From contig CACGMS010000002.1 of NCBI GenBank assembly GCA_902574205.1, positions 22,746 through 86,745 of the forward strand: a stretch of 64,000 bases of DNA, in the 5' to 3' direction. Source of the stretch: an uncultured Candidatus Hydrogenedens sp. (GTDB lineage Bacteria; Myxococcota; UBA4151). The position numbers were made by a program, and so were the translations under genes. Positions 3,676 through 54,817 of the stretch are shown piece by piece. Position 1 is the first letter of the stretch. Every line of letters begins with the position of its first letter. The notes below the pieces were generated by a model that was given only the letters and a program-made list of their open reading frames with translations, made no database searches and was not told the DNA's origin.

Positions 3676-6600
3676 CGCGTGGACTAACGCTGGCACTCGG
3701 TTTCTTTTTAGCCGCCCAGGTTGTTGCTCAGGGTCAGCCGGATACAGCCAAGCAATCGGAAGACGCTGAACCAGCACCAGCGAAAGCCGGGTCGACAGAC
3801 TCAAAGGCAGCAGAGCAACCATCAAATGATGATCCGCCAGAGGCGGGAGCCGCTGTGGCTGAGGCGCAGCAAAAGACGCCAGAGCAGTTAGCGAAAGAGA
3901 AAGCCAAAAAAGAATTTGAAGAGACCGTTGCTCGCTTCAAAAAGGTCTCTGATGAGTTCAATGCTGAGATTATGGCGACGATCAAGCGCAAGCGAGATGC
4001 TCGCATGCGCCGCATCGATATCGATTTTGAACAGCGTATCGGCGAGTTAGAGCGGCGTGAATCCGAGCGACGTAAAGGTGCAATTGAAGCATTTGAGCGC
4101 TTTGTGAGTCGCTATGCTTATGATGCCGAATATTCACCTCAAGCGATGTTTCGATTGGCTGAACTCTACTTTGAGCAAGCTAAATACGACTACAATGATG
4201 CCGATGAGGAGTTTTCTAGGCAGCTTGAATTGTTTGAGCAGAAAAAGATTGGCAAAGAGCCCGATGCGCCGGTTTTGGATTTGGCTAAGAGCATTAAGTT
4301 GTACGAGACAATCCTCAAGCGCTTTCCAAAGTTCGAACAAAACGACGGTGTTCAATATCTCCTAGCGTTTTGTTTAGAGGAGACCGGCGAATTTGAGCGC
4401 AGCCTGTCGAATTATGAAGGCTTGGTCGCTAACTACCCCGACAGTAAGTTTGTACCTGAAGTCTGGTTGCGTATCGGTGAAAATCATTTCACTGAAGATC
4501 GGTTATGCGAAGCGCTTGATGCTTATCGTCGGGTACTCAACAATCCCGAGTCAGCTTTGTACGATAAGGCACTCTACAAAGTCGCGTGGACGCACTATCG
4601 CCTCGATCGTTTTGATGCGGCGTACAAGCGCTTCATCGAGTTGATCGATTTTTCGGATAAAAAAGCTGAAGAAACCGGTGAGAGTGGATCAGACCTTAGG
4701 AAAGAGGCGTTGCAATACGTCGCTGTTGCTGCCGTTGAACAGGGGTGGGGGCGGCCTGCGACGGGCGAAGAGTTAGATCAGTGTAAAGCGGTTGTAGCTC
4801 AAGACGAGTTGTACGACGAAAAACAGGCTGAGTTGATGGATGAGTATGATGCCAAGGGGATCACGCCACCAGAAGTCTCAGCTGGTGACCGTTTGGAGCA
4901 GATGTTCGCTGCGGTGGGTGGGCGTAGCTACCAACGTGAAGTGTATTTAGAGGTGGCTAAGGTCCTGTTCGACCAAGCCGCATGGCAGAAGTATACGCCG
5001 ATCGCTAAGCGGGTGATCGAGCTTGACCCTATGCACCCGGATAATCCGAACGTGGCGATGAATATTATTGCTGCTTATGACCAACTGGGTCGCGAGAAGC
5101 TCGCTGAGGGCGCTGCTGCGCGTGAGGCATTGTTTACGACTTATGGTCCGGGTACCGAGTGGCAAGAGGCGAACAAAAATCGCCCTTCGGTGATTCGAAA
5201 GGCGATGAAGCTGGCTCAAGACGCTTTGATTTCCTCGGCCTTGTTTCGACTCGACCTTGCCCAGAAATACTTCCAGGAAGAGAAGGTCGCTTTAGCCTCT
5301 GAAGAAGCTCGAGTTTCTGCGCAGATGCTTTCTGACTACATCGAGCGATTTCCTTATGACCCAAATCTCTACGAGTACAACTATTACCTAGGTATTGGTT
5401 ATACAATGTCGGTGCAGTTTCTTAAGGCAGCCGACGTCTTTGAGTTGGTACGCGACGATAAGAAGAATAGTAAATATCGCGAGGATGCGGCTTACCGTGC
5501 GTTCTTGAACTTGCAGGCCGAGGTCGATTCGCAAACTCAAAAAGGTACGTTGCCTGAGCCGCCACCGCTAGCGGATACTCCGCAGGAGATTCCTCGCCTT
5601 TTGGTGCGTTTGATCGACGCGTCGATGAGGTACATCAAATCAAGTCCAAACACCGAAGATACACCGCGTTTCTACTTTAATGCAGCGACAATTTATGCCC
5701 AATACTCACACAAGTCGAAAGCCGATAAATGGTACCGAAAACTGATCGATACCTTCCCTGAGTCGGAAGGGGCGGTGGATGCTGCTCGATGGGTGCTCAA
5801 TGAGTACTCTGCTACAGAAGACTGGAAGAACGTTGAGGCCTGGTGTCGCCGTATGCTCAAGATTGGCGTCGGTAAAGACAACGAAGAATTCAAAGAGCAG
5901 ATGAGCAAAAGCGCTGCCGGTGCTGTGTATAAGCAAGCCGTCGCTGCGTTTGGTAAAAAGGAATTCCAACTGGCGCATGACGAGTTTTTGCGCTTGGTCA
6001 AGGAGGACCCGAAGAATCAGTTTGCAGCTAAGGCGCTGTATTCAGCAGCTCAGTCAATGGCTGAACTTAAGCGCTTTTTGTCGGCCGGTCAGCTTTATGA
6101 GCGAGTCTTCAAAGAGTACCCAGAAGATAAAGATCTCGCTGCAAAAGCATTATTTAATGTTGCATCGACGGCCTATGAGGGCTTTGAGTTCGATCGCGCC
6201 ATCTCATTGTATTTGAAATTGGTGTCCGATTACAAAGATTTCCCCGATCGAGCCGATGCGCTCTACAACGCTGCTGTTGCGCTACAGAGCACCGAACAGT
6301 TCAAGCGCGCCGCGCTGTTGTTTCAGAAATACACCAAGCTGTTTAAAGATCGGCCTGATGTACCTGAGGTGTTTTTCAATTCGGCTTTGGTTTGGGAGCA
6401 GGCGAAAGACGATCGCCGCATGAAACGAACATTTAATGAGTTTATTCGTAAGTACGGCAGTAAGAAAGAACAAGGCGGGCGTGTCGTTCAAATCTATTCG
6501 AAGTTTAGCGACCAATTGTGGGACGAGTTGGTGACTTTGAAATCGAAGCCGCCGAAAAGCAGGGCTCAGCGCCGGCGGTGGTCTAAATCGGTCAAGAATG

Positions 6601-7640
6601 CGCGAAAGAAAGTCGACCGATTTGTTGATAAAACGCTGGATGAATACAAAAAACGAGGTTTTGCACCGCAAACGATTGAGGCAGCTTATGCTGCTAAGGC
6701 GCATTTTCGTAAACTCGAAGCTGAATTCGAAGAGTACGCGGCGCTCGATTTTGGTGTGCAGGCACGAAAAGATGTTGAGCTTGCAAAGAAGCTTCAAAAG
6801 CGCATCAAAGAGAAGTTTGAATGGGCGAACAATCTTGAGAAAAAGTACCTCGATATCTTCCAGTATCTGACCTTTGATTGGACCTTGGCTGCATCGTATC
6901 GAATTGGTTCGATCTGGGAGAATTTTGCCGAGAAACTCTACAATGCGCCAGTGCCGAGACAGTTTCGTAATGACGACATTATGATGGATGAGTGGAAGGT
7001 TTTGCTTGAGCAGCAAGCCGAGCCATTTGAGCAGCGTGCGGTGCAAAAGTATGGCGACCTCATCAAAGAGGCGCGCAAGCGGAAGTTCCGCAACATGTGG
7101 ACGAAAAAGGCACTTCAGAGTTTGAATCGTTATGCGCGAGACGAATGGCCGATCGAAAAAGAAGCAATTACGAGTGGTCTTGAGGCGTTGTTGCCTGGTG
7201 ACTTGTTCGCTCAGCCCGCAGCTTATCGAAAGCCGCCACCACCGCCGCCGGAACCCAAAGACAAGGGCGAAGAGAAGCCTGAGGATAAGGGCGAAGAGAA
7301 GTCTGAGGACAAGGGTGAAGAGAAGCCTGAGGATAAGGGCGAAGAGAAGTCTGAGGACAAGGGTGAAGAGAAGCCTGAGGATAAGGGCGAAGAGAAGTCT
7401 GAGGACAAGGGTGAAGAGAAGCCTGAGGATAAGGGCGAAGAGAAGTCTGAGGACAAGGGTGAAGAGAAAGCTGAGGACAAGGGTGAAGAGAAAGCTGAGG
7501 ATATGGTGGAAAATCAACCCGCCGTCGATGTTCAGCCGTCGGATGTGCCTAGCCCGGACCAAGTAGAAGCCGACCAAAAATCCGCCGAAGAGAAATCGGA
7601 TCAAGCGCCACCAGCCGATAGCGATGAGGAGGACAAATGA
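3672..7640 (+). CDS. Large secreted TPR-repeat protein (1322 aa) with a C-terminal acidic (DKGEEK[P/S/A]E)x10 repeat tail.
   Basis: GTG start overlaps the upstream stop. Signal peptide MTRGLTLALGFFLAAQVVAQG. Multiple TPR-like repeats with the Y/W/F-A-L pattern. A 240-bp perfect tandem repeat sits at the 3' end. Its stop overlaps the next ATG (ATGA at 7637). Confidence 0.75.
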   Translation: MTRGLTLALGFFLAAQVVAQGQPDTAKQSEDAEPAPAKAGSTDSKAAEQPSNDDPPEAGAAVAEAQQKTPEQLAKEKAKKEFEETVARFKKVSDEFNAEIMATIKRKRDARMRRIDIDFEQRIGELERRESERRKGAIEAFERFVSRYAYDAEYSPQAMFRLAELYFEQAKYDYNDADEEFSRQLELFEQKKIGKEPDAPVLDLAKSIKLYETILKRFPKFEQNDGVQYLLAFCLEETGEFERSLSNYEGLVANYPDSKFVPEVWLRIGENHFTEDRLCEALDAYRRVLNNPESALYDKALYKVAWTHYRLDRFDAAYKRFIELIDFSDKKAEETGESGSDLRKEALQYVAVAAVEQGWGRPATGEELDQCKAVVAQDELYDEKQAELMDEYDAKGITPPEVSAGDRLEQMFAAVGGRSYQREVYLEVAKVLFDQAAWQKYTPIAKRVIELDPMHPDNPNVAMNIIAAYDQLGREKLAEGAAAREALFTTYGPGTEWQEANKNRPSVIRKAMKLAQDALISSALFRLDLAQKYFQEEKVALASEEARVSAQMLSDYIERFPYDPNLYEYNYYLGIGYTMSVQFLKAADVFELVRDDKKNSKYREDAAYRAFLNLQAEVDSQTQKGTLPEPPPLADTPQEIPRLLVRLIDASMRYIKSSPNTEDTPRFYFNAATIYAQYSHKSKADKWYRKLIDTFPESEGAVDAARWVLNEYSATEDWKNVEAWCRRMLKIGVGKDNEEFKEQMSKSAAGAVYKQAVAAFGKKEFQLAHDEFLRLVKEDPKNQFAAKALYSAAQSMAELKRFLSAGQLYERVFKEYPEDKDLAAKALFNVASTAYEGFEFDRAISLYLKLVSDYKDFPDRADALYNAAVALQSTEQFKRAALLFQKYTKLFKDRPDVPEVFFNSALVWEQAKDDRRMKRTFNEFIRKYGSKKEQGGRVVQIYSKFSDQLWDELVTLKSKPPKSRAQRRRWSKSVKNARKKVDRFVDKTLDEYKKRGFAPQTIEAAYAAKAHFRKLEAEFEEYAALDFGVQARKDVELAKKLQKRIKEKFEWANNLEKKYLDIFQYLTFDWTLAASYRIGSIWENFAEKLYNAPVPRQFRNDDIMMDEWKVLLEQQAEPFEQRAVQKYGDLIKEARKRKFRNMWTKKALQSLNRYARDEWPIEKEAITSGLEALLPGDLFAQPAAYRKPPPPPPEPKDKGEEKPEDKGEEKSEDKGEEKPEDKGEEKSEDKGEEKPEDKGEEKSEDKGEEKPEDKGEEKSEDKGEEKAEDKGEEKAEDMVENQPAVDVQPSDVPSPDQVEADQKSAEEKSDQAPPADSDEEDK
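7260..7499 (+). repeat. In-frame tandem DNA repeat: 24-bp unit x10, with strict 48-bp super-period. Encodes DKGEEKPE/DKGEEKSE alternation.
   Basis: Units gacaagggYgaagagaagYctgag / gataagggcgaagagaagtctgag alternate. U3 to U8 are three perfect 48-bp copies. The last two units carry aaagct (KAE). Confidence 0.92.
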
Positions 7641-9589
7641 AACGTGTCGTACTTTTCATGATCCTCGGTGCTTCGTGTGCCTCACCGAAACCTGCCCAGC
7701 CTGAACCGGTTGTCTTTGATGAGGCGCCAGTAATGGAGCCTGAAGCCGGCCCGGCTGAGCCTGTTGAGGCGGGTTTTACACCGGATGCAGCGGCAGACGC
7801 AGGTGAGATCGTTGTTCCGGATGCAGCGGTCGATGCTGGTTCGGTGCTTCCTGATGCGGGTACTGTCGACGCAGGGCGTTTGGTTGAGCCTTTGTTGCCC
7901 GATGAGGCCCTAAAAGCGCGCTTTGAAAAAGCTCTAGACCAAGCGCTTGATGACCCGAAAGCTGCGGAGTCTGAGTTTGATGCGATCGCTGCTGTGGCAC
8001 CCAACTTCTATTTTGCGCATTACAATGCTGCGCTGTGTCGTTTGAGACAGGGTGATAAACAAGCAGGCATGGCTCGATTGCAGTCTGTGCATGACCAGTT
8101 TGGTTCGGTTTTTCATGGCGCAACAGAAGCGCTTGCTTGGGCAAAGTTTCGCGATGGCGATAAAGAAGGCGCACAGTCCCTTCTAAGGGGCGCGATGAAT
8201 GATCACCCTCGTGTTCTTGATTTGCGAAACGCGTACGGTCGCATGTTGCTTGAAGTTGGTCGTTACGAAGAGGCGGCTGCGCTATCGATGAAAACTCTTA
8301 AGAAAGACGAAGTAAATGTCTCTGCGATGCAGGTTCTAGGTTGGTCGTTTTGTAAGCGTGAAAAGATGGGGCTGTGCCTTCTCGTGCTCGGGAACGCGTT
8401 GAAAGTTCCTGGTGAAGAAGCGAACGGGATGACCAATTACCTAGCGGCTTTAGCGTACCTAAAATATGCGAAAGGTGCTCAGAAGTTAACAGCTGAAGCG
8501 CGCGTTCGCCGCGCTCATGGGTATTTGGAAAAGGCAGCCGCAGGCTTGCCAGATAAGCCAGAGGTACTGATTAATTATGCTCGCGTTTTGCTCGATCGCG
8601 GCGACCCTCAGCAGGCCTATAAGTTAAGTCGAAGAGCCACGGTTCTGCGGCCGGACTTAATCGAGGGTTGGATGCTCAAGGCTGTCGCTGAGCGCGATAA
8701 GGGTGACTATGCCGCAAGTCGAACGACCTTTTTGAAGATTCTCAACGAGTATCCAGAACAGTATTCGGTGCTTTATAATTTGGGTATTTTGTATCTCGAT
8801 CACGGCATGAAAAAGGTCGAGGGACAAGAGTTGTGTCCAGATGTCTCGATCGACGACATGAAGCAAGAAGTGGGATCGGATTTGTTTGACGGTGTCGCGG
8901 TCAAGCACGTCGACAAGACGATGGTCGACAAACTGCGCCGATTGCGTCAGGCGACGAGTTACCTTGAGCGGTTTCGTAAGAGTACGGAGCTCGATAATGA
9001 GCGCTCGATCGAAGTGGAGAAACAGATCCGCGCAGCGAATAAGGCCATTCGTAGCGAGAGTAAGAAACGCGCGCGGAACATCAAGCGTGCCAAGCGAGAA
9101 AAGAAAAAGGCAGAGCGGCGCAAAAAGCGGATGGAGCGCGAAGCCAAGAAAAAAGCTGCTGAGGAAAAGAAAGCCGCTGAGGAAAAGGCTGCTGCTGAAG
9201 CGCAGGGCGCTGCTGTAAGTGGAGAAGCTGACGGTTCATCGCAGGTTGAGTCGACGTCTTCGAAGGATAACGCGAACACGGACGCTGATGCGCCTGTTGC
9301 TGAGCCGGTGCCAACGCCAGAGACCGCAGCGGGAGCGCCGCGAGCGAACGCCGGCGAAGGCGAAGAAAAGGGCGAAGAAAAGGGCGACGAAAAGAGCGAA
9401 GAAAAGGGCGAAGAAAAGAGCGACGAAAAGAGCGACGAAAAGAGCGACGAAAATTCGTCTGAGCAAACTAAGCCTGCGTCGGAATCCAAATCTGATGATG
9501 AATCGCAGTCTTCTGCTTCGGAAGATCAGCAGCAAGCCGAAGCTGAGAATGAAGAACCTTCTGATGGTTCGGAGCGCGAAGAGAAATGA
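7637..9589 (+). CDS. TPR-repeat lipoprotein (650 aa) with a Lys-rich coiled-coil segment and an acidic EEKGE/DEKSD repeat tail.
   Basis: N-terminus MKRVVLFMILGASC has signal and lipobox-like features. TPR-like repeats at aa 120-400. KRAKREKKKAERRKKRMEREAKKKAAEEKKAAEEKAAAEA helix. 15-bp repeats at 9352-9455. Coupled by ATGA at both ends. Confidence 0.72.
   Translation: MKRVVLFMILGASCASPKPAQPEPVVFDEAPVMEPEAGPAEPVEAGFTPDAAADAGEIVVPDAAVDAGSVLPDAGTVDAGRLVEPLLPDEALKARFEKALDQALDDPKAAESEFDAIAAVAPNFYFAHYNAALCRLRQGDKQAGMARLQSVHDQFGSVFHGATEALAWAKFRDGDKEGAQSLLRGAMNDHPRVLDLRNAYGRMLLEVGRYEEAAALSMKTLKKDEVNVSAMQVLGWSFCKREKMGLCLLVLGNALKVPGEEANGMTNYLAALAYLKYAKGAQKLTAEARVRRAHGYLEKAAAGLPDKPEVLINYARVLLDRGDPQQAYKLSRRATVLRPDLIEGWMLKAVAERDKGDYAASRTTFLKILNEYPEQYSVLYNLGILYLDHGMKKVEGQELCPDVSIDDMKQEVGSDLFDGVAVKHVDKTMVDKLRRLRQATSYLERFRKSTELDNERSIEVEKQIRAANKAIRSESKKRARNIKRAKREKKKAERRKKRMEREAKKKAAEEKKAAEEKAAAEAQGAAVSGEADGSSQVESTSSKDNANTDADAPVAEPVPTPETAAGAPRANAGEGEEKGEEKGDEKSEEKGEEKSDEKSDEKSDENSSEQTKPASESKSDDESQSSASEDQQQAEAENEEPSDGSEREEK
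9352..9455 (+). repeat. Imperfect 15-bp in-frame tandem repeat (about 7 units) encoding (E/D)EK(G/S)(E/D).
   Basis: Units are gaagaaaagggcgaa / gacgaaaagagcgaa / gacgaaaagagcgac variants. Confidence 0.7.
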
Positions 9590-9660: not shown

Positions 9661-9918
9661 ATGATGCGAGTGAAGCAGCCAGGGTGGCTACGATTGCGTT
9701 GGGCTGGCCTCGCGGTCCTGGCCGTTCTAATGTTTGGCTCGACACCAGCGTATGCGAAAAAGTTGGTTATCTCAGAAGCTTTTGAAATTACTGGGAAAAT
9801 ACAGCGACCTCAGGCGATGTATATCCTCCAGCGACAAAAGCTAAATCTCAAGGGTCTTCAACTTCGCCGGAGTCTAATTCCCAAGCTCTTAGAAAGTATG
9901 CGCAAGCCGCCACTTTGA
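9661..9918 (+). CDS. Small secreted hypothetical protein (about 85 aa).
   Basis: In the 9586-9918 ORF, the internal start ATG 9661 (after GGGGAG) gives the signal peptide MMRVKQPGWLRLRWAGLAVLAVLMFGSTPAYA. No recognisable domain. Confidence 0.3.
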   Translation: MMRVKQPGWLRLRWAGLAVLAVLMFGSTPAYAKKLVISEAFEITGKIQRPQAMYILQRQKLNLKGLQLRRSLIPKLLESMRKPPL

Positions 9919-10020
9919 CGGCTTGCCACACAAAAGAAAGTTAACTAACAACCCTCTTCAGATAATTGTGTGGTCCAAAATCTTGGGTCACTGAGGACAA
10001 GAGACATACAGGAGGTTCTC

Positions 10021-10671
10021 ATGTCGGTAGTTGCCGAGTTTTACAAACAGGGTGGTACTTGGATGCATCCCATCGCATTCGTGTCGGTGGTGGTGGTCGC
10101 GGTTTGTGCGGAGCGGATTTATTTCCTCTGGTTCCGTTACAACCTAAATGCTCACAGTTTCATGGGTCAGATTCAAAAGCTGATCATGGAAAACAGTGTC
10201 GATCGGGCGATCAAGCTGTGCAATGCTGAGCAGCATGCTGCGTTGCCGAGGATCGTGAAATCCGGTCTGACTCGCGCCAACAAAGGTGAGCAAGAAATCA
10301 CAAACGCTGTCGAAGAGATGGTGCTTGAGATGACCCCGCTCATCAGCAAGCGGATGGCATGGCTTCCGACGTTGGCGTCGTTGGCAACGATGCTCGGTCT
10401 TCTTGGTACGATTATCGGTATGATCGAAGCGTTCGCCGCCGTGGCGAAGGCAGCGCCTGATCAGAAGCAGGAAATGCTTGCCGGTGCTATTGCTATCGCG
10501 ATGAACACCACGGCGTTTGGTCTGATGGTCGCGATCCCGACCATGTTCCTTAGTCTGATTCTCAACACGTTGGTGAAGAAGATTATGGATGAAATTGATC
10601 AATACAGCATCAAGCTGGTTAATATGCTTGTCCTGCGTGGTCAGGGTGGGACCAACCCGCTCAATCGCTAG
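10021..10671 (+). CDS. MotA/TolQ/ExbB-family proton channel (AglR/TolQ-like).
   Basis: AGGAGG lies 6 nt upstream of ATG 10021, so the ORF-track start at 9970 is unlikely. About 216 aa with three TM helices and the conserved TolQ/ExbB C-terminal TM pair (LASLATMLGLLGTIIGMIEAF...AIAMNTTAFGLMVAIPTMF). Confidence 0.82.
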   Translation: MSVVAEFYKQGGTWMHPIAFVSVVVVAVCAERIYFLWFRYNLNAHSFMGQIQKLIMENSVDRAIKLCNAEQHAALPRIVKSGLTRANKGEQEITNAVEEMVLEMTPLISKRMAWLPTLASLATMLGLLGTIIGMIEAFAAVAKAAPDQKQEMLAGAIAIAMNTTAFGLMVAIPTMFLSLILNTLVKKIMDEIDQYSIKLVNMLVLRGQGGTNPLNR

Positions 10672-11541: not shown

Positions 11542-12144
11542 GTGACCGAAGAGCAAAATGTCGAGTCGGTTGAAGAGCAGAAGGCCGTTGAGTCGGTCGA
11601 CGGTGCTTATCCTGGATGGGATGAGCAACAACCGCCAGCGAAGAAGAAGAAACAGGCAGGAGGTATTGGTGACGAAGAGGTCCCGATGCCGAATATTACG
11701 TCGCTACTCGACGCGCTGTTCATTATTCTCGTGTTCCTCCTGAAAAGCTATTCAACCAACCCAGTTTCGGTGACTCAGAGCGCGAGTCTGAAGTTAGCGG
11801 CTTCCGCTGCGCAGCTCAGTCCGAAAGATGCATTGCCGGTGATTATTGATAAAAAAGGTATCACCGTCGACGGTATCGAGACGATGAAGTTTGATGATAA
11901 GGGTATGGTTCCGGCGGATCAGGTTGCCGGTCACATTATTGCGCCTTTGTCGCAGGCATTGCGTGATCAAGCTGAGAAGCAGCGTAAGCTGGCTCAGTTG
12001 AACACCGATGTCAGTTTTAAAGGTGAGTTGATTCTTATTTGCGATAAGGATTTACCATATAAAATCCTGCGCGATATCTTAATGACGGCTGGCGATGCGG
12101 AGTATGGTAATTTCCGTTTCGCTGTGATTAAGGCTGCGGGCTGA
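11542..12144 (+). CDS. ExbD/TolR-family protein (second paralogue).
   Basis: GTG start after AGGAAGG. Acidic N-terminal extension, then TM (ITSLLDALFIILVFLLK). The periplasmic ExbD-like core is GELILICDKDLPYKILRDILMTAGDAEYGNFRFAV. Confidence 0.7.
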   Translation: MTEEQNVESVEEQKAVESVDGAYPGWDEQQPPAKKKKQAGGIGDEEVPMPNITSLLDALFIILVFLLKSYSTNPVSVTQSASLKLAASAAQLSPKDALPVIIDKKGITVDGIETMKFDDKGMVPADQVAGHIIAPLSQALRDQAEKQRKLAQLNTDVSFKGELILICDKDLPYKILRDILMTAGDAEYGNFRFAVIKAAG

Positions 12145-12175: not shown

Positions 12176-13534
12176 ATGGGCACGAAGGTTCTCAAGGTAG
12201 CGGTCACTCAAGGTAAAAAAATCCTTGAGCAGAAACTCATCAGTAGCCGAACTTCGGTTACCGTGGGGACTGCGGCATCGAATACATTGCATGTAAGCGG
12301 TGAAGGCTTACCGGATACTTATAATCTGTTTGAGGTTGTTGGCGGAAAGTATTGCCTGAACTTCACGGAGAAGATGACGGGCAAGGTCAATGTTGGTGGT
12401 GGTCAGCTTGATTTTGAAACTGCCCGACAACAGACCGGTGTGCGTAAGCGCGGTAATGAATACCAAATGGTACTCAGCGAGGCGTCCAAAGGTGCAATCG
12501 AGTTGGGTGCTGGCGGTGTCCGCATCATCTTTCAGTTTGTCGATGCGCCCGCTGATGCGGTGCCTGCAAAACTGGCAGATTCGACGTATATGCCGCCTCT
12601 GCAGCGCTTGGATCGAGTGTTTTGGGGTTGTTTGGTTGTCTCTGCGTTGCTGCATACGGGTGGGGTGATCGGTGCGATGAACGCGCCGCCACCGCCGAAG
12701 CGCAAGATCACCGAGTTGCCTGATCGTTTTGCTAAGATGATCATCAAGAAGCCGCCAAAAGTTAAGCCGAAAGAAGAAAAGAAAAAAGAGCCCAAGAAAG
12801 ACGGTGAGAAGAAGCCGTCCGAGAAAAAATCCGAAAAGAAAGCTGAGCCGAAACCAGAGAAAAAGCCGGCTAAAAAAGCTCAAACAGCTGCCAAGAAAGA
12901 AGAGCGTCGTGCCCAGGCTCAACAAGCCGTCCGCCAGAGCGCTGTCTTCAAGGCTTTAGCGATCGCTACGTCCGGCGGCGGCGCTGGCGTCGTGTTTCAG
13001 GCAGACGGTGACCCTCGAACTGATGTTAGCGCAGCGTTAGCGGCTTCGGGCGGAGCGGGTATCGCCGCTGCGGATGGAGGGCCCGGTGGGCCTGCTGTTC
13101 GAGGTGGCTCCGGTGGCGGAGGGCCTGTTGGTATTGGTGAAGTGGGCGGCGTGGCCGTCGGCGGCGGTGGGGGTAAGATAGCCAAGCGAAAAGGCCCGAA
13201 AATCCGCGTACGTATGAAGATGAGTAAGCCGAAGATTGACGACGGCGAGCTGGACGGAAAATCAGTTGCTCGTAAAATTCGGGCTCGAAAGCGTGCGTTC
13301 CAGGCTTGTTATGAGCGAGAACTCAAACGTAATCCGTCGCTCAAAGGTAAGCTGGTCTTAGAAGTTACGGTTGGCGAGAATGGTCGTGTCGCCGATATCT
13401 TTGTCGCCGATAACGCGCTCAATAACGCTGTGGCTAACTGCATCAAAGGCAAGATGCGTTCGATTCGTTTCCCGAAACCAGAGGGTGGCGAAGCAACGTT
13501 CTCCTATCCGTTCGTCTTTGCATCGAGTGGGTAG
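12176..13534 (+). CDS. Bitopic GltG(PglI)/GltJ(AgmX)-like protein. It has a cytoplasmic FHA-like domain, one TM, a Lys/Pro/Glu-rich linker, a Gly-rich segment and a C-terminal TonB-C-like AgmX/PglI-type domain.
   Basis: The N-terminal 135 aa carry a degenerate FHA pattern (VTVGTAASNTLHV...GGKYCLNFTEKMTGKVNVGG). TM is VFWGCLVVSALLHTGGVIGAM. Linker is PPPPKRK...KPKEEKKKEPKKDGEKKPSEKKSEKKAEPKPEKKPAKK. C-terminus is FQACYERELKRNPSLKGKLVLEVTVGENGRVADIFV...CIKGKMRSIRFPKPEGGEATFSYPFVF, which resembles the AgmX/PglI C-terminal (TonB-C-like) family. Confidence 0.65.
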   Translation: MGTKVLKVAVTQGKKILEQKLISSRTSVTVGTAASNTLHVSGEGLPDTYNLFEVVGGKYCLNFTEKMTGKVNVGGGQLDFETARQQTGVRKRGNEYQMVLSEASKGAIELGAGGVRIIFQFVDAPADAVPAKLADSTYMPPLQRLDRVFWGCLVVSALLHTGGVIGAMNAPPPPKRKITELPDRFAKMIIKKPPKVKPKEEKKKEPKKDGEKKPSEKKSEKKAEPKPEKKPAKKAQTAAKKEERRAQAQQAVRQSAVFKALAIATSGGGAGVVFQADGDPRTDVSAALAASGGAGIAAADGGPGGPAVRGGSGGGGPVGIGEVGGVAVGGGGGKIAKRKGPKIRVRMKMSKPKIDDGELDGKSVARKIRARKRAFQACYERELKRNPSLKGKLVLEVTVGENGRVADIFVADNALNNAVANCIKGKMRSIRFPKPEGGEATFSYPFVFASSG

Positions 13535-13536: not shown

Positions 13537-14463
13537 ATGCAGCGGCTGGATCGTGCGGGGATTGAAGTCCTTCTCGAGACTGAACAGTTCAAGAGTTGGT
13601 TTGCCGAACTTAACGGTCTCAATCATCGCCTCGAACTTTTAGAATCCTCGATTGAGCGCGCTGCGGAGGCGTGCGCAGAAGCCGGCTTCCGATGCACCTA
13701 TTGGCAAGAAGCTGCTGAAGAGGCGTTGTTGCGGTCAGCCGACCTGGGTAATACCTGCCATAATCTGCGTACGGAGATCGCTCGCTTAGAGAACGAAGCT
13801 TTTAGACGGCTTGCAGAGTTTGAGAGCGTTCGGGATGAGGTCACCGATCTGTGGATCAAAATTACAGCGATCGAGCATCGTTGTGATGATCATCCGGACG
13901 AAGCAACTCGCGTAAGGTCTCGAGCTCGCTATCAAGGCGAGTTGAAAAAACTTCGAGCAGCCTATGCATCCAGTAATGAGCGTAAAGAAGCACTTTGGCA
14001 GGCCGAAGAGCTGCTTTGGATGCAAGTGGCGGAGCAGACCCTCATGGTGCCCGAGATCGAAGTTCGTTCTCAGCGTTTAGAAGAGCGCTATGGACAGTTG
14101 ATGCACCGCGTTGAGGCGTTACAAGAGCGGGAGAAGCGTGCGCAACAAACGCTGGCTGATGAGCGTGAGGAACTGGTTGAAGTTCAGAAGCAAATGGCAA
14201 AATTGCGCTCTGCGGCAAAGATGTCGTTTTCCTGTGTTTGCCATGAAAATTTTCTCTATTGGCCGATTGGTGACGATGCGAAACTTGCTCTGGTTGTCGC
14301 CCTCAATTCGAATCCGACGGATTACAATATTGAGGTGAAGAGCGGGCAATTGTATCAATGTGAAACCGAGAGAGGCGTCCGGTATCTTGAGCCCGTCAGT
14401 GTCGGTACGTCGGTTGTGGAAGAAGATGAGCGTCTTATTCGGTTCTTTGAGGAGGTCGCATGA
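13537..14463 (+). CDS. Cytoplasmic coiled-coil hypothetical protein (308 aa).
   Basis: Starts 3 bp after the upstream stop. Heptad-rich, no TM or signal peptide. Its stop overlaps the next ATG (ATGA at 14460). Confidence 0.6.
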   Translation: MQRLDRAGIEVLLETEQFKSWFAELNGLNHRLELLESSIERAAEACAEAGFRCTYWQEAAEEALLRSADLGNTCHNLRTEIARLENEAFRRLAEFESVRDEVTDLWIKITAIEHRCDDHPDEATRVRSRARYQGELKKLRAAYASSNERKEALWQAEELLWMQVAEQTLMVPEIEVRSQRLEERYGQLMHRVEALQEREKRAQQTLADEREELVEVQKQMAKLRSAAKMSFSCVCHENFLYWPIGDDAKLALVVALNSNPTDYNIEVKSGQLYQCETERGVRYLEPVSVGTSVVEEDERLIRFFEEVA

Positions 14464-14918
14464 GTGAGGCTTATGATCGGGTCGAAGCGCTTCAGGCCTC
14501 GCCTTTGTTTAACGATCTTTTGCCGTTGGAAAAACAATATCTTGCGGATTTAGCAGTCCATCGCCAACTCGGAGCAGGCGACATCCTTTTTGAGGAAGGT
14601 GATGTTGGTGATGCGATGTATGTCGTGGTCAGTGGTGAGTTGGGCGTTGAGGTTGGCGAGAATGGTGTAAATCACGAAATAGCGACTTTAGTGGCGCCTG
14701 ATTTTGTGGGTGAAATGGCGTTGATTGATAAACGGCCTAGGGCAGCTCGCGTTCGCGCAAAATCGGATGCGGTTTTGTTAGCGATCAGCCATGCGAACAT
14801 TTACTCTTTTGCCCGTGTTCATCGAAGCGGTTTTACTTGGTTAGTGGTCAATATTGCGAAAAACCTGGCCAGCCGCTTACGTGCGATGAACGACGCTGCT
14901 TCGGGTGTGGCCGAGTGA
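14460..14918 (+). CDS. Standalone cyclic-nucleotide-binding (CAP-family cNMP) domain protein with no HTH.
   Basis: GDILFEEGDVGDAMYVVVSGEL...FVGEMALIDKRPRAARVRA is the canonical cNMP-binding beta-roll with the phosphate-binding GE...R(A)A. Only 152 aa, so no effector domain is fused. Confidence 0.8.
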   Translation: MSEAYDRVEALQASPLFNDLLPLEKQYLADLAVHRQLGAGDILFEEGDVGDAMYVVVSGELGVEVGENGVNHEIATLVAPDFVGEMALIDKRPRAARVRAKSDAVLLAISHANIYSFARVHRSGFTWLVVNIAKNLASRLRAMNDAASGVAE

Positions 14919-15028: not shown

Positions 15029-16333
15029 GTGTTTGGAGCCTTTGATTTGTTCATGTTAATGAACCAAAACCGCTTGTTGGTAGCGGTCTTAGGCTTCGCG
15101 TTCGTCAGCGCGCCTGCGTACGCAGAAGGCGGCATCAAGCTCACCTCGGAAGCACGAATGCACCCGTTGGTGCAAACTGGGTTCGCATTCGATTCGAATC
15201 CGCACCGTGCTTCTGGCGATACAGCTAAAGGCGATGGGTTCTTTCTGGTTCAAGGCGGCTTTGAGTTGAGTGTACCTTCTGATCGGCTCGACGTCCGCAT
15301 GAACAATGTCATCAGTTACAACCACTATCTGGGGTTGATGGCGGATCCGAACACCGTGGGGGGGAATACGGCAGCGCTCTCGACGGTCAAGGGTGGTTCG
15401 GCACTCCAGTTGCTCGGCAATCGTAAGGGTAAACTGCGATGGGGGCTGGCTGGGAAGGTCAGTCGCCTTGATGAGCCAGAGCCCCTGAATCTGGGTATTC
15501 GGCAGGGGCGTTGGTCCAATGGTGTTGATACGTTCTTGGAGTGGCGCCCCAGTGGCGGTGCTTTGGGCGTCAAACCAGCAGCCAGTTTGGTGTATGATGC
15601 GTATGACGCGTCAGGTGGGGTAGGCGCAACGAAGCTCAATAAGGTCGCTCCGGGTCTGAGACTTGATTTTGACTGGCGCTTTCTCCCGCGGACGCAGTTC
15701 GTGATCAACAATCATTGGACATCGGTGACGTACGTAAACGACGAAGCGGCTAACGGTTACGCTGATCCTGTGAGTTCAGAACTGGGCGTTATGGGACAGT
15801 TTTCGCCGCGTCTTTCAGCGATCATTGCCGTGGGTTATTCGGGTAGTCAGTTTCTGACATCGGACAAGAATACGGACAACGCGACGAAAACGTTTTCTGG
15901 GCAAGCCGAGATTCGTTACGATGAACGACGAAAGGTGACCTGGCGATTAGGTTTGCGCCGTCGGCTGCTGCCCGTATCGGTTTTTGGCTTCATGGCGGAC
16001 AACAGTGCCTATGCGCGCTACTCTGAGAAGTATTTGGGCGGTCTGCGCGTGGTGACACAACTCAAGGCAAGCCTTCGTACATTTGGCGCGCAGACGTCTG
16101 CACAAGACGTCATCCAGATTGGTACGGGTGAAGCACGAGCAGATATCACCGCGAGCTTTGATGCAAACATTCTCTGGCAACCGCAGAAATGGTGGGTAGC
16201 TGGTTTGACGAATCGTTTTGAGTACTTCACCACCAATAGTGTGTTCAAGTCAGCCGGTATGGCAGGTGATTCGCTGATTAGTCCTGATTTTGGGCGTAAT
16301 CTAACCATGTTGGTGTTCGAAGCCAAGTACTGA
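15029..16333 (+). CDS. Outer-membrane beta-barrel protein (partner of the downstream short OPX protein).
   Basis: Signal peptide (LLVAVLGFAFVSAPAYA). Alternating amphipathic beta-strand pattern throughout. Ends ...LTMLVFEAKY with a terminal aromatic typical of OMP barrels. A start at 15053 or 15059 is also possible. TGATG overlap with the next gene. Confidence 0.7.
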   Translation: MFGAFDLFMLMNQNRLLVAVLGFAFVSAPAYAEGGIKLTSEARMHPLVQTGFAFDSNPHRASGDTAKGDGFFLVQGGFELSVPSDRLDVRMNNVISYNHYLGLMADPNTVGGNTAALSTVKGGSALQLLGNRKGKLRWGLAGKVSRLDEPEPLNLGIRQGRWSNGVDTFLEWRPSGGALGVKPAASLVYDAYDASGGVGATKLNKVAPGLRLDFDWRFLPRTQFVINNHWTSVTYVNDEAANGYADPVSSELGVMGQFSPRLSAIIAVGYSGSQFLTSDKNTDNATKTFSGQAEIRYDERRKVTWRLGLRRRLLPVSVFGFMADNSAYARYSEKYLGGLRVVTQLKASLRTFGAQTSAQDVIQIGTGEARADITASFDANILWQPQKWWVAGLTNRFEYFTTNSVFKSAGMAGDSLISPDFGRNLTMLVFEAKY

Positions 16334-16926
16334 TGCGACTTGGTTGGGTTTGGATCGTCCTGGCGCTGGGTGCCTGTCGCGGGACAGTCGCTCCGGCACC
16401 TAAAACCGTTGATATCGAGAGTATTCGCGAGACGATTGAGAAGCGTCGTCACTTTATTGGCGCGGGTGACTCGGTTCAGATCCAAGTGTACCGAGAAAAG
16501 GAACTGTCGCTGAGCCAGATCGTCAGTCAGGATGGGACCATTTCGTTGCCGGTCACCGGAGAAGTCCAAGTCGCTGGAAAAACGCGTCAGCAGATTGAAG
16601 CTGAGCTCGAGACTAAACTGGTTAAGGCCGGTTTGAGTAACCCGAGGGTGTCCGTTTTGATCAAAAGGCTGATCTCCGCAAAGGTCTCTGTCTATGGTGA
16701 GGTGACTAAGCCTGGTACCTTTCCGTACGAGTCTGGGATGACAGTTGTTCAGGCGATTACCATGGCCGACGGGTTTAAGCGGACCGCCCTACAAGATAGA
16801 GTCATGATTATTCATGCCAATGGGGAGCGCCTCGAGGTGCCTGTGCGCCAGATTGGGTTGGGAAAAGTTCCGAATGTACCTTTGTTACCCGGTGATGTGA
16901 TCTACGTCCCAGAGAGCTATTTTTAG
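16333..16926 (+). CDS. Short Wza-like outer-membrane polysaccharide export (OPX) protein with a Poly_export/SLBB domain.
   Basis: VQIQVYREKELS...ISQDGTISLPVTGEVQVAGKTRQQIEAELETKL matches the PES/Wza N-terminal motif and is followed by an SLBB-like segment. At 197 aa it lacks the C-terminal OM-spanning helix of full-length Wza. Confidence 0.75.
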   Translation: MRLGWVWIVLALGACRGTVAPAPKTVDIESIRETIEKRRHFIGAGDSVQIQVYREKELSLSQIVSQDGTISLPVTGEVQVAGKTRQQIEAELETKLVKAGLSNPRVSVLIKRLISAKVSVYGEVTKPGTFPYESGMTVVQAITMADGFKRTALQDRVMIIHANGERLEVPVRQIGLGKVPNVPLLPGDVIYVPESYF

Positions 16927-16945: not shown

Positions 16946-17683
16946 ATGAAGGGTATTGTGCTCGCGGGTGGTATGGGGACGCGTCTCGCTCCCTTGACGC
17001 ACGTCACCAACAAGCATTTGTTACCGGTTTATGATCGACCCATGGTCGATTATCCGCTCGAGACATTGATCACGGCAGGTATCGAGGAAATCATGGTTGT
17101 TACGGGCGGTGAACACGCTGGTGATTTCCTCAAGTTGATGGGTAACGGTGAACGCCTCGGTTTACGTCATCTGAACTACACCTACCAAAAAGGTCATGGT
17201 GGCATCGCGGAAGCGCTTGGTCTGTGCGCGCATTGGGCAGATGGTGAGCCGATCTGCGTGATCTTAGGCGATAACCTTTTTGAGTATCAGTTGAGCCCAG
17301 GACTCATGGCGTTTGCGGATGATCCTAAAGGTGCCATGGTCTTCTTAAAGCAAGTCCATGATCCTGAGCGGTTTGGTGTCGCCACTCTTGAGGGTGATCG
17401 TGTCGTGGATATCACCGAGAAGCCCTCGCAACCGAATAGCGATTGGGCAGTGACCGGCGCCTATTGTTACGATGCAGAGGTCTTTGAAATCATTAAAACG
17501 CTCAAGCCAAGTGCTCGTGGCGAGCTTGAAATTACGGACGTCAATAATGCGTATCTGCAACGAGGTATGTTGCAAGCGCACAAGCTCGACGGTTGGTGGA
17601 CCGATGCAGGAACTTTCGAGAGTCTCTTGCGCGCTGGCAATTTGGTGGCCAAAAGCGGTGCCAATAAATCGCACGAGTCGTAA
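16946..17683 (+). CDS. Sugar-1-phosphate nucleotidyltransferase (short-form glucose-1-phosphate thymidylyl/uridylyltransferase family).
   Basis: MKGIVLAGGMGTRLAPLTHVTNKHLLPVYDRPMVDYPLE is the canonical NTP-transferase N-terminal motif. Confidence 0.82.
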   Translation: MKGIVLAGGMGTRLAPLTHVTNKHLLPVYDRPMVDYPLETLITAGIEEIMVVTGGEHAGDFLKLMGNGERLGLRHLNYTYQKGHGGIAEALGLCAHWADGEPICVILGDNLFEYQLSPGLMAFADDPKGAMVFLKQVHDPERFGVATLEGDRVVDITEKPSQPNSDWAVTGAYCYDAEVFEIIKTLKPSARGELEITDVNNAYLQRGMLQAHKLDGWWTDAGTFESLLRAGNLVAKSGANKSHES

Positions 17684-17691: not shown

Positions 17692-19935
17692 ATGCGCGAA
17701 CAACTCATTGCATTCGTTGATCCTCGTCATCGAAACGGTGCACTTCGATTAGGTCTTCTTTTTGCTGCATTGATCTTTGTGCCCTTTTTAGGTGCCTCTG
17801 GTCTCACGTCGCCATGGGAAGCACAGTACGCTGAAGTCGCTCGCGAAATGACGGCTAATGGTAACTATGTTTATCCAAAATACAGGAATACAGGGTTCTT
17901 CTCGAAACCCATTTTGACGATGTGGTTAACGAGTCCTGGGCTGAGCATTACGGGTGGCTGGCAAGCTGACGGCATGATTTCATCGTGGACGCCATTCGCT
18001 GTGCGTTTACCGATGGTTTTGTTGTTGTTGTTTGCCTTGTTTACGATGTTTTGGTCGATGGATCGGATCTTTGGTCATCGCATCGCGCTGGCGTGTATAT
18101 TGGTGGCTTCGACATCACCGTTTATTTTACTCGCAGGGCGCCAAGCGGTTACTGATATGCCGTTTTTTGCAACGGTAAGCGCGGCTTTATTCGCTCTAAT
18201 GGGGTATCTGTTTGGTGAGGATGAAGAGGCAGAGGCTCAGGCGCGTGTGGATACCCCGGCTGTCTGGGTTTTTGCTGTGCTTGCTGGGGTCGTCGTTGAG
18301 TTGGTTGTAGGGCTAGCTGCTCCGGCGGTTCATAGCGGTTGGCGACTGTTGTTTCTCTTGATTACGGTGCTTGCCGTCGCTCACCTTTTAGACCGTGCAG
18401 CCCGTCGACAACTGGAGAACTCTGAGGCTCGCTGGCTGACCGTTCGTGAAGATGGCGGTGATAAGTTACCGCTATGGTTCTTGACGGGGTTAGCTTGTGT
18501 CGTTGGCTTGCAGATCTTTTGGTATGTGACTTGTCCGGAGAATGATCCAATTTTGCCGATCAGAGGCTTGCGCTTGCCGAGCCGTATCACGGTCGTTGCT
18601 GGTATGATTGTACTCGCCGGCGTTTTGTATGCCCAACTTCGTCACAAAGCGCGCAATGAACTTCCGTTGTATGGCTTTTATGCCCTAGTCGGTTTGGCGA
18701 CATTAGCGAAAGGTTTTGGCGGCTTTATGCTCCCGGGAGCTGTTGCTCTGGGTTATATTGTCAGTGCCTGGGATTGGGGAGTTCTCAAGCGGGTTCGCTT
18801 GGTCACGGGTCCTGCTTTGTCTCTACTTGTTGGTGCACCTTGGTTCTTAATTATGTTCGCTTATCCTGGACGAGATGAAGAGCATAAGACCTTTTATTCT
18901 CGGTTTGTGGTGCATGATCACCTTCGGCGAATGGGCGGTGGAATTCATGGGGATTCAAGTAAGCGTGGTCTCGGCTTTACATACCATATTCGCTACTTAG
19001 CGTATGGTTTGTTTCCGTGGGTTTTGGCGCTTCCAGCTGCCGTCGCTCGTCTGATTGGAAACACCAAAGCACGTCGAGGTAAGGATGCCGCCGAGATGTT
19101 CTTGGTGGTTTGGTTGGTGGTGAGCTTTTTACTCTTTACGCTGATGTCGACCAAGTTTCATCATTATGGATTGCCGGTTGTCGCGCCGCTCGTTGCGTTG
19201 ATCGGGATTTGGTTGGGTAATTTGAGTTTAGATCGCTTTGTGTGGTCGCCGCCTATTGCTGCGTTGACGATTTTGCTCGGGGTCGCTGTTGCGGCTGACT
19301 TGATCCGGTTTCCATGGGAGTGGATGGATCTAACAACATACCACTATATTAACTATAAACCTCAAGATTATTTCCCAAGTGTTGCCGGTGGTCAGTGTGA
19401 TCTGAGCACAACGTACTGTTGGGTTCTTGGTTTCATTCCAGTGACCATCGACTTCAATTGGCCGTTATTGGTAGGAATCGCTGTTGTTGTATCAACAGCT
19501 CTCGCTGTTATGGCATCGCTCTACGGCGCCTACAAAGCCGGTGCGGGATTTTTACAGAGCAAGGTGTGGGTCGCCTCGGGTTTGGTGACAGGCCTCTTTG
19601 TGGCGCATTTGTATTTCCCTGTCCTGGGTCAGCATTGGACGCATGCTTCGTTAGTTGGAACGTACTTTAAGCGACGACAGCCAGCTGACCCGCTCGTGGC
19701 TTATCAGATGAATTGGCACGGCGAGACTTTTTACGCGCGTAACTTAGAGTGGCAAATCAATGACTCGAAGCGGTTACGACAAATTGTGGACCGGCCAGGA
19801 ACCGCTTGGGTGTTGGTTGAGCAGTCGCGATTTGATGGGATGAAAAAATCGCTGGGAAATCGGTACAAAGAGCGAGTTCATATTGCTGATCGCTCGAATG
19901 TGAAATGGTATTTGGTACGCGTTGATGATCCCTAG
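17692..19935 (+). CDS. GT-C fold membrane glycosyltransferase (ArnT/PMT-like, GT39/GT83 type).
   Basis: 747 aa and polytopic. N-terminal ...PWEAQYAEVAREMTANGNYVYPKY resembles the ArnT/PMT first periplasmic loop motif. About 12 or more TM helices. Confidence 0.7.
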   Translation: MREQLIAFVDPRHRNGALRLGLLFAALIFVPFLGASGLTSPWEAQYAEVAREMTANGNYVYPKYRNTGFFSKPILTMWLTSPGLSITGGWQADGMISSWTPFAVRLPMVLLLLFALFTMFWSMDRIFGHRIALACILVASTSPFILLAGRQAVTDMPFFATVSAALFALMGYLFGEDEEAEAQARVDTPAVWVFAVLAGVVVELVVGLAAPAVHSGWRLLFLLITVLAVAHLLDRAARRQLENSEARWLTVREDGGDKLPLWFLTGLACVVGLQIFWYVTCPENDPILPIRGLRLPSRITVVAGMIVLAGVLYAQLRHKARNELPLYGFYALVGLATLAKGFGGFMLPGAVALGYIVSAWDWGVLKRVRLVTGPALSLLVGAPWFLIMFAYPGRDEEHKTFYSRFVVHDHLRRMGGGIHGDSSKRGLGFTYHIRYLAYGLFPWVLALPAAVARLIGNTKARRGKDAAEMFLVVWLVVSFLLFTLMSTKFHHYGLPVVAPLVALIGIWLGNLSLDRFVWSPPIAALTILLGVAVAADLIRFPWEWMDLTTYHYINYKPQDYFPSVAGGQCDLSTTYCWVLGFIPVTIDFNWPLLVGIAVVVSTALAVMASLYGAYKAGAGFLQSKVWVASGLVTGLFVAHLYFPVLGQHWTHASLVGTYFKRRQPADPLVAYQMNWHGETFYARNLEWQINDSKRLRQIVDRPGTAWVLVEQSRFDGMKKSLGNRYKERVHIADRSNVKWYLVRVDDP

Positions 19936-25487: not shown

Positions 25488-25489
25488 TC

Positions 25490-27187: not shown

Positions 27188-27190
27188 GTT

Positions 27191-28411: not shown

Positions 28412-28422
28412 AAGGCGATTTC

Positions 28423-28854
28423 ATGGAAAACACATCAACAAAAATTCTGAAAGCAAGCGCAAGGCGCGGGATGACTTTGATCGAAATCCTTGTTGTGGTT
28501 GCGATTTTAGGCATGTTGGCAACGGCAGTAACTGTGACGGTGCTTGATCAGTTTGAAGACGCCAAGGGTGAACGCGCCCGTATGGATATTGCCGCGGTGA
28601 CCCAGGGCTTATCTGCCTATTACATCAAGATGGGTAAGTACCCGACGACGGGCGAAGGCTTGAGCAGTTTGGTCAGTCCTCCCAAAGGCAGCCCGCTGTT
28701 GAGTGAACTCCCTAAAGACCCGTGGGAAAACGAGTATAATTACGCCTATCCTGGCACGCGTAATGCCAAAGGTTTTGATTTGTGGAGTTCGGGTAAGGAC
28801 GGTCAATCTGGTAGCGAAGACGATATCGGTAACTGGAAAGACTCGGCTGAGTAA
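28423..28854 (+). CDS. gspG: Major pseudopilin GspG.
   Basis: Prepilin leader RRG|MTLIEILVVVAILGMLA with Glu+5. Confidence 0.87.
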   Translation: MENTSTKILKASARRGMTLIEILVVVAILGMLATAVTVTVLDQFEDAKGERARMDIAAVTQGLSAYYIKMGKYPTTGEGLSSLVSPPKGSPLLSELPKDPWENEYNYAYPGTRNAKGFDLWSSGKDGQSGSEDDIGNWKDSAE

Positions 28855-28857
28855 ATC

Positions 28858-30814: not shown

Positions 30815-30820
30815 GGTGGG

Positions 30821-32245: not shown

Positions 32246-32247
32246 TT

Positions 32248-54807: not shown

Positions 54808-54817
54808 AATCTGACCG

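Follow-up and report, generated by a model that had tools for sequence, protein, structure and literature searches.

A probable WzpB/WzaB-type polysaccharide export gene pair beside an Agl/Glt-like core cluster in an uncultured Myxococcota lineage

Composite outer membrane translocons made of an OPX (outer membrane polysaccharide export) protein and a porin are already known; they were described in 2022 and dissected mechanistically in 2026. In Myxococcus xanthus, EpsX and EpsY interact and stabilise each other (Schwabe 2022, PMC9601211). The gene for a second OPX protein, WzaB (MXAN_1915), follows MXAN_1916 (WzpB) at a distance of 23 bp, whereas the OPX genes for exopolysaccharide (EPS) and the major spore coat (MASC) polymer lie upstream of their barrels (Saidi 2022, PMC9603273). 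The gene mxan_1915 is 'orphan-like': it is located 1.016 Mbp from the wzx/wzy/wzc genes of biosurfactant polysaccharide (BPS), yet is genetically required for BPS, and its counterpart in Sandaracinus is contiguous with the BPS wzx/wzy/wzc genes (Islam 2020, PMC7310880). The crystal structure of WzaB, a Class-3 OPX protein, is available as 9N9A (Mellouk 2026, PMC12819527). WzaB binds WzpB via Phe203-Phe204, needs lipidation for oligomerisation, and contacts the polysaccharide co-polymerase (PCP) WzcB directly through an Arg106-Arg107 loop; both WzaB and WzpB are required for BPS secretion (PMC12819527). Here, we describe a barrel/OPX gene pair in 64,000 nucleotides of DNA (the window) from an uncultured Candidatus Hydrogenedens sp. 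(GTDB lineage Bacteria; Myxococcota; UBA4151), positions 22,746 to 86,745 of contig CACGMS010000002.1 in assembly GCA_902574205.1. The pair is likely to be a WzpB/WzaB-type composite outer membrane translocon for a secreted polysaccharide, because its OPX protein aligns with WzaB end to end and keeps both the lipobox cysteine and the C-terminal aromatic docking motif.

Both open reading frames (ORFs) are located on the + strand, the barrel ORF at 15029/15059-16333 and the OPX ORF at 16333-16926. The junction reads ...TAC TGA TGC..., and the stop codon TGA (16331-16333) and the start codon ATG (16333-16335) have one base in common, as an earlier reading of the DNA from sequence alone (the original prediction) had proposed in the form of a TGATG overlap. 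The same prediction gave the barrel a length of 434 aa, which is reached only if the GTG at 15029 is the start. Since the 12 close homologues of the barrel are 422-423 aa long and all open with 'MNQ(H/N)R...', translation most likely begins at ATG 15059, for a product of 424 aa with a predicted signal peptide cleaved between ...SAPAYA and EGG. Thus, the barrel itself is retained and its length is probably to be revised. Around the pair, scans for promoters and terminators found as many as in shuffled controls.

The downstream gene (16333..16926, +) encodes a predicted 197-aa lipoprotein of the Class-3 (D1D2) OPX type, with Poly_export, one SLBB domain, a lipobox and an aromatic end. Poly_export (PF02563) was matched at 74.4 bits against a Pfam cut-off of 28 (E=8e-21, residues 42-110), and SLBB and SLBB_2 at E=1e-10 and 2e-11 (residues 117-192). 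The protein ends at residue 197, and the Pfam scan returned no domain beyond these, in agreement with the Wza-like protein with PES/SLBB domains that had been predicted. The best sequence match in the PDB is the 186-residue chain of WzaB 9N9A (phmmer E=2e-33); the alignment begins at residue 33 and runs to the end of the protein. Both sequences terminate in VPES[FY]F, in this case ...VPESYF. In an AlphaFold2 model from 50 homologues (pLDDT, the predicted local distance difference test, 83), order begins at about residue 40 and continues to the C-terminus, with no C-terminal helix. Foldseek placed WzaB 9N9A at the top (E=3e-19), with the D1-D2 part of Wza next. The earlier claim that the protein is too short for an outer-membrane-spanning C-terminal helix therefore stands, as the match stops at Wza D1-D2 and the model lacks a terminal helix.

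The lipobox of the OPX protein reads L-G-A-C15, with Cys15 invariant in the 50 homologues, and a recognisable lipobox is found in 110 of 140 OPX family sequences. The same 140 sequences mostly end in a hydrophobic residue followed by Phe (LF 69, YF 21, MF 11, FF 10); the family consensus is VPES-hydrophobic-F, which the VPESYF of the window protein fits. WzaB alone among them has Arg-Arg at the PCP-contact position, most others having RD, KN or RN, and this contact looks specific to WzaB rather than family-defining. Absence of the twin arginine was considered as a sign that the OPX has no PCP partner and was rejected as uninformative, because nearly all relatives lack the motif. Among NCBIfam models the best match is TIGR03027, at 110 bits over the whole 169-position model against a curated cut-off of 180; the EpsY model scored 74 bits against 320.

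The upstream gene (15059..16333, +) encodes an outer membrane beta-barrel porin, probably of WzpB type, a distant member of PF10082/BBP2_2. Its AlphaFold2 model, built from an 18-sequence alignment, has 18 beta-strands (mean pLDDT 77, predicted TM-score (pTM) 0.71), consistent with the beta-barrel originally predicted for the 15029 product. Long and short loops alternate, the short ones forming eight periplasmic turns; the strands are amphipathic, a signal peptide is present, and 61 of 63 family members end in an aromatic residue. Alternating loops, amphipathic strands and an aromatic end are hallmarks of an outer membrane protein assembled by the beta-barrel assembly machinery (BAM). The window barrel itself has no Pfam or NCBIfam match, and PF10082 ('putative beta-barrel porin 2') is matched by 29 of the 63 sampled family members. 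A word-indexed search found 17 barrel homologues only, compared with 1,913 cluster representatives (E<=1e-3) in an exhaustive search by profile. The barrel-family profile matched nothing meaningful among PDB sequences, and a literature search on PF10082, DUF2320, TIGR03016 and TIGR03014 yielded nothing of relevance. Within the family, conservation is highest at the mature N-terminus before strand 1 (window 15125-15200; residues ~33-57 of the 434-aa ORF), with the pattern GGIKLT.EAR.HP…D.N. Close homologues all share G35, H45, P46 and D55, and the first of these, G35, is still invariant at ~20% identity. This segment could be a docking site for a periplasmic partner.

Conservation of the pair was examined at 42 fetched loci, gathered by similarity to the window barrel or the window OPX, with the barrels grouped into 17 lineages at 60% identity. 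A diverse barrel alignment (A2) was too variable for the genome scan and a closer one (A1) was used, a choice that favours one barrel subfamily among the loci recovered. Close relatives of the pair come from Myxococcota metagenome-assembled genomes (MAGs). In these, the whole block from the tetratricopeptide repeat (TPR) genes upstream to the type II secretion system (T2SS) downstream is syntenic down to 41% barrel identity (L009). Many other loci share only ~24-27% barrel identity, and some belong to MAGs binned as Gammaproteobacteria-like or 'Deltaproteobacteria'. An OPX gene lies downstream of the barrel in 11 of 15 informative lineages, down to about 24-25% barrel identity. Because barrel-then-short-OPX recurs to this extent, the pairing is, as judged from gene order, not due to chance. 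It is also found in two further contexts and at four loci reached from the OPX side. The OPX-side sample comprises the relatives with the longest NCBI/ENA contigs, four in all, including one from an Anaeromyxobacter MAG. All four have the same cluster, in the layout GltF/GltG-like … FG-GAP giant, small protein, barrel (PF10082) and OPX, with no glycan genes after the OPX in three.

Several of these loci have features of their own. A secreted helical protein of ~180-210 aa is encoded directly upstream of the barrel in L002, L003, L010, L012, L014, L016, L018, L025-L030, L034 and L037-L042. It contains two conserved cysteines ('KD.VKLNCVN…QC[IV]GE') and a C-terminal 'PP..SP[FVY]x', and has no Pfam match. 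No homologue is present in the window or its close relatives, which have coiled-coil and cyclic-nucleotide-binding genes there instead. A ~1,555-aa FG-GAP/beta-propeller protein is encoded between the cyclic-nucleotide-binding gene and the small-protein and barrel genes in L010/L023, L024 and L039-L042. These loci are from one Myxococcota group, including Anaeromyxobacter-like MAGs, and the protein may contribute a surface or adhesin-like part to their version of the system. In L039 (8828-9986), the barrel gene appears split across two frames and is called as 286 aa, explained either by an assembly error or by a frameshift that made it a pseudogene. In L041 (2987-9651; an Anaeromyxobacter MAG), the barrel is parted from the OPX by 7 kb of opposite-strand genes for a sugar ABC importer, a mannitol dehydrogenase and a short-chain dehydrogenase/reductase, which indicates that the pair tolerates being split.

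As a WzpB/WzaB-type translocon, the pair would work as follows. After export and lipidation on Cys15, the 197-aa OPX would be anchored in the outer membrane's inner leaflet and, if it behaves as WzaB does, would assemble, presumably as an octamer, into a D1/D2 ring that forms an open periplasmic conduit without a membrane-spanning helix. Tyr196-Phe197 of the OPX would dock on the eight short periplasmic turns of the barrel, and the 18-stranded barrel would be the actual pore across the outer membrane. The TGATG overlap would couple translation of the two proteins. The exported polymer is probably made by a pathway encoded outside the 64-kb window, for which BPS in M. xanthus, with wzaB 1 Mb from wzx/wzy/wzc, is the precedent.

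Several observations weigh against this interpretation. Pfam and NCBIfam scans of 56 ORFs over the whole 64 kb found no Wzx, Wzy, Wzz/Wzc/PCP, ABC-transporter or synthase gene; the original prediction had reported the absence of adjacent Wzx, Wzy, Wzc and ABC-transporter genes, and this now extends to the entire window. The assignment of the barrel to the WzpB type is indirect, from its gene order, size and homologous OPX partner. Its top Foldseek matches in the PDB are 18-stranded Occ/OprD channels (TM-score ~0.5, identity 8-13%), and AlgE and PgaA are not in the 50 best. The PCP-contact arginines of WzaB are replaced by Ser-Asn in the window clade. Also, the barrel lineages without an adjacent OPX are essentially one clade plus L018, from which it follows that the barrel can function, or at least persist, without a neighbouring OPX.

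Upstream of the pair is a second conserved system. The Agl/Glt core complex is present in many non-gliding bacteria, its function there having been unassigned since 2011, and M. xanthus itself has a paralogous Glt cluster without an assigned function, G4, whose gltD homologue is MXAN_1922 (Luciano 2011, PMC3169522). All components of this core have likely counterparts in the window, on the + strand. The first is a GltC-like TPR protein of 782 aa (1327..3675), with a weak GltC match (41 bits, cut-off 450) and a homologue at the same position in L016. It is followed by a 1322-aa GltD-like protein with TPR and YbgF-like repeats (3672..7640; L016 homologue at E=1e-131) and a 650-aa GltE-like TPR protein with a weak GltE match (7637..9589; 34 bits, cut-off 225). 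A small secreted protein of 85 aa (9661..9918), below the 150-aa limit of the ORF listing, is GltF-like by size and position. It has a signal peptide cleaved between …STPAYA and KK, is homologous to the products of 88-92-aa genes before the GltG-like gene in L016, L039 and L040, and is conserved in the syntenic loci; M. xanthus GltF has 89 aa and a signal peptide. Three motor genes come next: an AglR-like MotA/TolQ/ExbB proton-channel subunit (9970..10671; MotA_ExbB, PF01618, E=1.5e-24) and two AglQ/AglS-like ExbD/TolR subunits (10752-11522 and 11542-12144; two PF02472 matches). The last is a GltG-like TonB/TolA-type transducer of 452 aa (12176..13534; NF033768, 94.5 bits against a cut-off of 40). 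It consists of a cytoplasmic N-terminal domain, one transmembrane helix, a Pro/Lys-rich linker and an AgmX/PglI TonB-C-like tail, has no FHA-domain match, and scores 177 bits with the GltG equivalog model (cut-off 650).

The order of these genes, C-D-E-small-R-Q-S-G, is identical to that of the Geobacter core complex GM21_0438-0445, in which the 85-aa gene corresponds in position to an unlisted gene. The window cluster is not the gliding machine itself: GltH, GltA and GltB have 209, 256 and 275 aa, compared with the 424-aa, 18-stranded barrel here, and no GltA/B/H/K or CglB homologues were seen in the window. Two other identities for the barrel were considered. GltH, encoded after gltG in M. 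xanthus, was rejected on size and strand count. The barrel is also probably not the 'additional gene' of Luciano's core complex, because the unlisted Geobacter gene (GM21_0441/Gura_3074) sits between gltE and aglR, the position of the 85-aa GltF-like ORF.

The sizes of the G4 products resemble those of the window proteins. Table S3 of Luciano 2011 (PMC3169522) lists MXAN_1919 with 447 aa, MXAN_1920 with 91 aa, MXAN_1921 as a 490-aa TPR protein, MXAN_1922 as a 1111-aa TPR protein and MXAN_1923 with 809 aa. These parallel the G-, F-, E-, D- and C-like proteins of the window (452, 85, 650, 1322 and 782 aa) and of L016 (452, 92, 295, 1104 and 767 aa). In that table, the 'homologue of' column for rows MXAN_1919-1923 is printed reversed relative to the locus tags, and the gltD homologue is MXAN_1922 in the main text and MXAN_4868 on the table line; the protein sizes support reading the five genes as G, F, E, D and C. 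According to the locus tags in the papers and the protein sizes, wzpB/wzaB (MXAN_1916/1915) appear to be two genes from G4 (MXAN_1919-1923). In the literature that could be searched, no paper links G4 or the core complex to WzaB/WzpB; the term 'Glt' is absent from Saidi 2022 and Mellouk 2026, and the word 'polysaccharide' from Luciano 2011.

This linkage raises the alternative, compatible with a translocon, that the pair is the outer membrane module of the adjacent Agl/Glt core-like machine, for which we see a genuine chance, although well under even. The proton-driven AglRQS-like motor, acting via the GltG-like transducer and the GltC/D/E/F-like periplasmic scaffold, would engage the barrel with or without the OPX ring, and would gate or power export, or else transport the polymer, once exported, along the surface. 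The Glt-like complex would take over from, or add to, a PCP as the bridge across the periplasm. Upstream of the barrel, 10 of 13 informative lineages have a GltG-like gene, with barrel identity falling to about 24%; since the loci were gathered via this barrel or OPX, this is a statement on the subfamily and not on all PF10082 proteins. Motor genes are present whenever the contig reaches far enough upstream, and the same cluster occurs in all four OPX-side loci. Moreover, the full core complex is present in the window in Geobacter order, and G4 lies, by locus tags, two genes from wzpB/wzaB. In a structural model from M. xanthus, GltC docks on N-terminal segments of the outer membrane barrels GltA/B (PMC11761067). 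The Exo polymer, for whose export a short OPX is used, is handled by Agl-Nfs (Wartel 2013, PMC3858216). The window OPX also lacks the Arg-Arg pair of the PCP contact.

The evidence for such a module is gene linkage, and parts of the M. xanthus literature point the other way. Agl-Glt/Nfs act after export and are dispensable for polymer synthesis and export, agl mutants still exporting (Wartel 2013, PMC3858216), and WzaB binds the PCP WzcB directly (PMC12819527). A mutant in the G4 gltD homologue had no motility phenotype, motility being the trait scored (Luciano 2011, PMC3169522). In addition, the small-protein, barrel and OPX genes occur without a nearby GltG-like gene in L003/L004 and L025, and L018 has the small-protein and barrel genes only. 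The original prediction offered a choice between synthesis genes elsewhere and service to the Agl/Glt-type machine. Both possibilities are retained, the first for its M. xanthus precedent and the second for the deeply conserved Glt linkage, and the exclusive form of the choice is dropped. Functional coupling of the translocon with the Glt-like core is thus plausible but unproven. By analogy, we tentatively suggest that the GltG-like transducer and TPR scaffold contact the barrel, or that the machine handles the exported polymer. More speculatively, and on balance doubtfully, the core complex may ancestrally have been a trans-envelope partner, driven by proton motive force, of a PF10082-type barrel and mostly also of a short OPX ring. 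A motor-GltG-TPR assembly would then gate, energise or position the polysaccharide translocon, and, if this is true, the gliding (Glt) and spore-coat (Nfs) machines are later derivatives of a polysaccharide-handling device.

Downstream of the pair are two sugar-related genes on the + strand. An RmlA-like sugar-1-phosphate nucleotidyltransferase of 245 aa (16946..17683; NTP_transferase E=8e-54) begins 19 nt beyond the end of the OPX gene. It is syntenic in L001, L006, L007, L009 and L020, and its score with the rmlA model, 244 bits, is below the equivalog cut-off. A 747-aa membrane glycosyltransferase of GT-C fold with ~14 hydrophobic segments (17692..19935) starts 8 nt after it and is ArnT/PMT-like (ArnT 5EZM, E=4e-21; NCBIfam ArnT model, 88.6 bits). 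The pair could export the product of these enzymes without Wzx/Wzy/PCP, the RmlA-like enzyme providing an NDP-sugar and the GT-C enzyme building or transferring a glycan at the periplasmic face from polyprenyl-phosphate-sugar donors. We consider this improbable. In its favour are the tight spacing of the barrel, OPX, RmlA-like and GT-C genes (gaps of -1, 19 and 8 nt), which are syntenic down to 41% barrel identity in L009, and the ArnT match. Three distant lineages (P0168, P0169 and P0174/L016) also carry glycan genes here: their loci read TPR, GltF-like, GltG-like, small protein, barrel, OPX, then a ~770-aa Wzy_C protein in the position of the GT-C gene, RmlBDAC and an initiating phosphoglycosyl transferase. 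However, ArnT/PMT-like GT-C enzymes usually modify lipid A or proteins, rather than making polymers for export. Unrelated genes (uracil-DNA glycosylase (UDG), RecA and a SIS-domain protein) follow the OPX in L010 and L039-L042, and no polyprenyl-phosphate sugar synthase, flippase or initiating transferase is present in the window.

The alternative of a common solute porin, or of some unrelated outer membrane protein, that stands beside the OPX gene by accident is very improbable and already disfavoured: the barrel's top Foldseek matches in the PDB are the substrate-specific Occ/OprD channels and it has no direct Pfam/NCBIfam match, but the two genes overlap, their adjacency is kept at ~25% barrel identity, the OPX keeps its porin-docking C-terminal motif, and an OPX without a membrane-spanning domain needs an outer membrane partner.

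Between the GltG-like gene and the barrel are genes for a coiled-coil protein (308 aa) and a cyclic-nucleotide-binding protein (152 aa), together at 13537..14918 (+; cNMP_binding E=3e-20). Neither product has a signal peptide or transmembrane segment, and both are cytoplasmic; L009, L010, L040 and L042 have both genes in the same place. Together with the cyclic-nucleotide-binding gene (14460-14918), a gene for an adenylate/guanylate cyclase 19 kb downstream (35920-36954) hints at cyclic-nucleotide control of the cluster. After the GT-C gene are a major facilitator superfamily transporter and then a complete T2SS at 22132-35752 (+), consisting of GspC-like, D, E, F, pseudopilins, K and L/M-like components, which is syntenic with the pair in L001, L006, L007, L009 and L020. 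A 2025 paper reports that slime secretion and gliding in M. xanthus depend on GspD, the secretin of its T2SS (PMC12475490), and for this reason the co-location of the T2SS with the Agl/Glt-like cluster and the OPX/porin pair may be meaningful. The GC skew is ~+0.12 to +0.18 over 1-54000, where all genes are on the + strand, and ~0 in 54000-64000, where genes switch to the - strand.

The pair adds one more example of a composite OPX/porin system, from an uncultured Myxococcota lineage. It supports the lipid anchor and the C-terminal aromatic docking motif of WzaB as family-wide features, the Arg-Arg PCP contact not being conserved. The loci also indicate that a full Agl/Glt core complex and an OPX/porin translocon have been inherited together across very divergent bacteria; the window shows the most complete form, a single co-oriented block that joins core complex and motor to the barrel, the OPX and the sugar enzymes. 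Apparently unremarked before are this deep linkage to the core complex and the adjacency of G4 and wzpB/wzaB deduced from locus tags, which makes the function of the core complex and G4, open since 2011, experimentally testable.

Among known systems, the 18-stranded porins of synthase-dependent pathways (AlgE and the BcsC/PgaA barrels) and the Occ/OprD channels share with the window barrel a monomeric outer membrane barrel of 16-18 strands; the window barrel is without a periplasmic TPR domain. The XrtA/PEP-CTERM export pair (TIGR03027 OPX and TIGR03016 outer membrane protein) resembles the pair in that TIGR03027 is the best NCBIfam match of the OPX and the distant barrel relative L012 weakly matches TIGR03016 (curated cut-off 90.85). 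However, the scores are under the curated cut-offs, and the window has no exosortase, PEP-CTERM or PrsK/R genes. E. coli Wza (Class-1, 2J58) has homologous D1 and D2 domains (E=4e-14, Wza residues 97-231). In contrast, the window OPX is without D3 and the D4 amphipathic helix and cannot span the outer membrane by itself. EpsX/EpsY (WzpX/WzaX) and ExoB/ExoA (WzpS/WzaS) are composite translocons of a D1D2 OPX lipoprotein and an 18-stranded barrel (PMC9601211), but their OPX genes are upstream of the barrels and both pairs are inside Wzx/Wzy/PCP clusters. The original prediction had named these as the type of the pair. The short-OPX/barrel translocon is upheld, and the closest characterised pair is instead WzpB/WzaB, because the gene order matches, WzaB is the best PDB match and the EpsY model scores far below its cut-off.

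The likeness to WzpB/WzaB extends to several levels. The barrel precedes the OPX in both, unlike in the EPS and MASC pairs, and the proteins are of similar size (421 and ~204 aa in M. xanthus, 424 and 197 aa here). The OPX is ~40% identical to WzaB over its full length and shares the lipoprotein signal and the C-terminal aromatic docking motif, and the partner is an 18-stranded barrel with eight periplasmic turns. Both pairs are located away from any Wzx/Wzy/PCP genes and beside a Glt-like paralogue cluster, G4 in M. xanthus and a full core complex here. The two differ in the gene junction (a 1-nt overlap here, a 23-bp gap in M. xanthus), in the Ser-Asn at the PCP-binding Arg106-Arg107 of WzaB, and in the RmlA-like and ArnT-like genes that follow the OPX here. 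They also differ in the motor genes, which are elsewhere (M1/M2) in M. xanthus and inside the cluster in the window.

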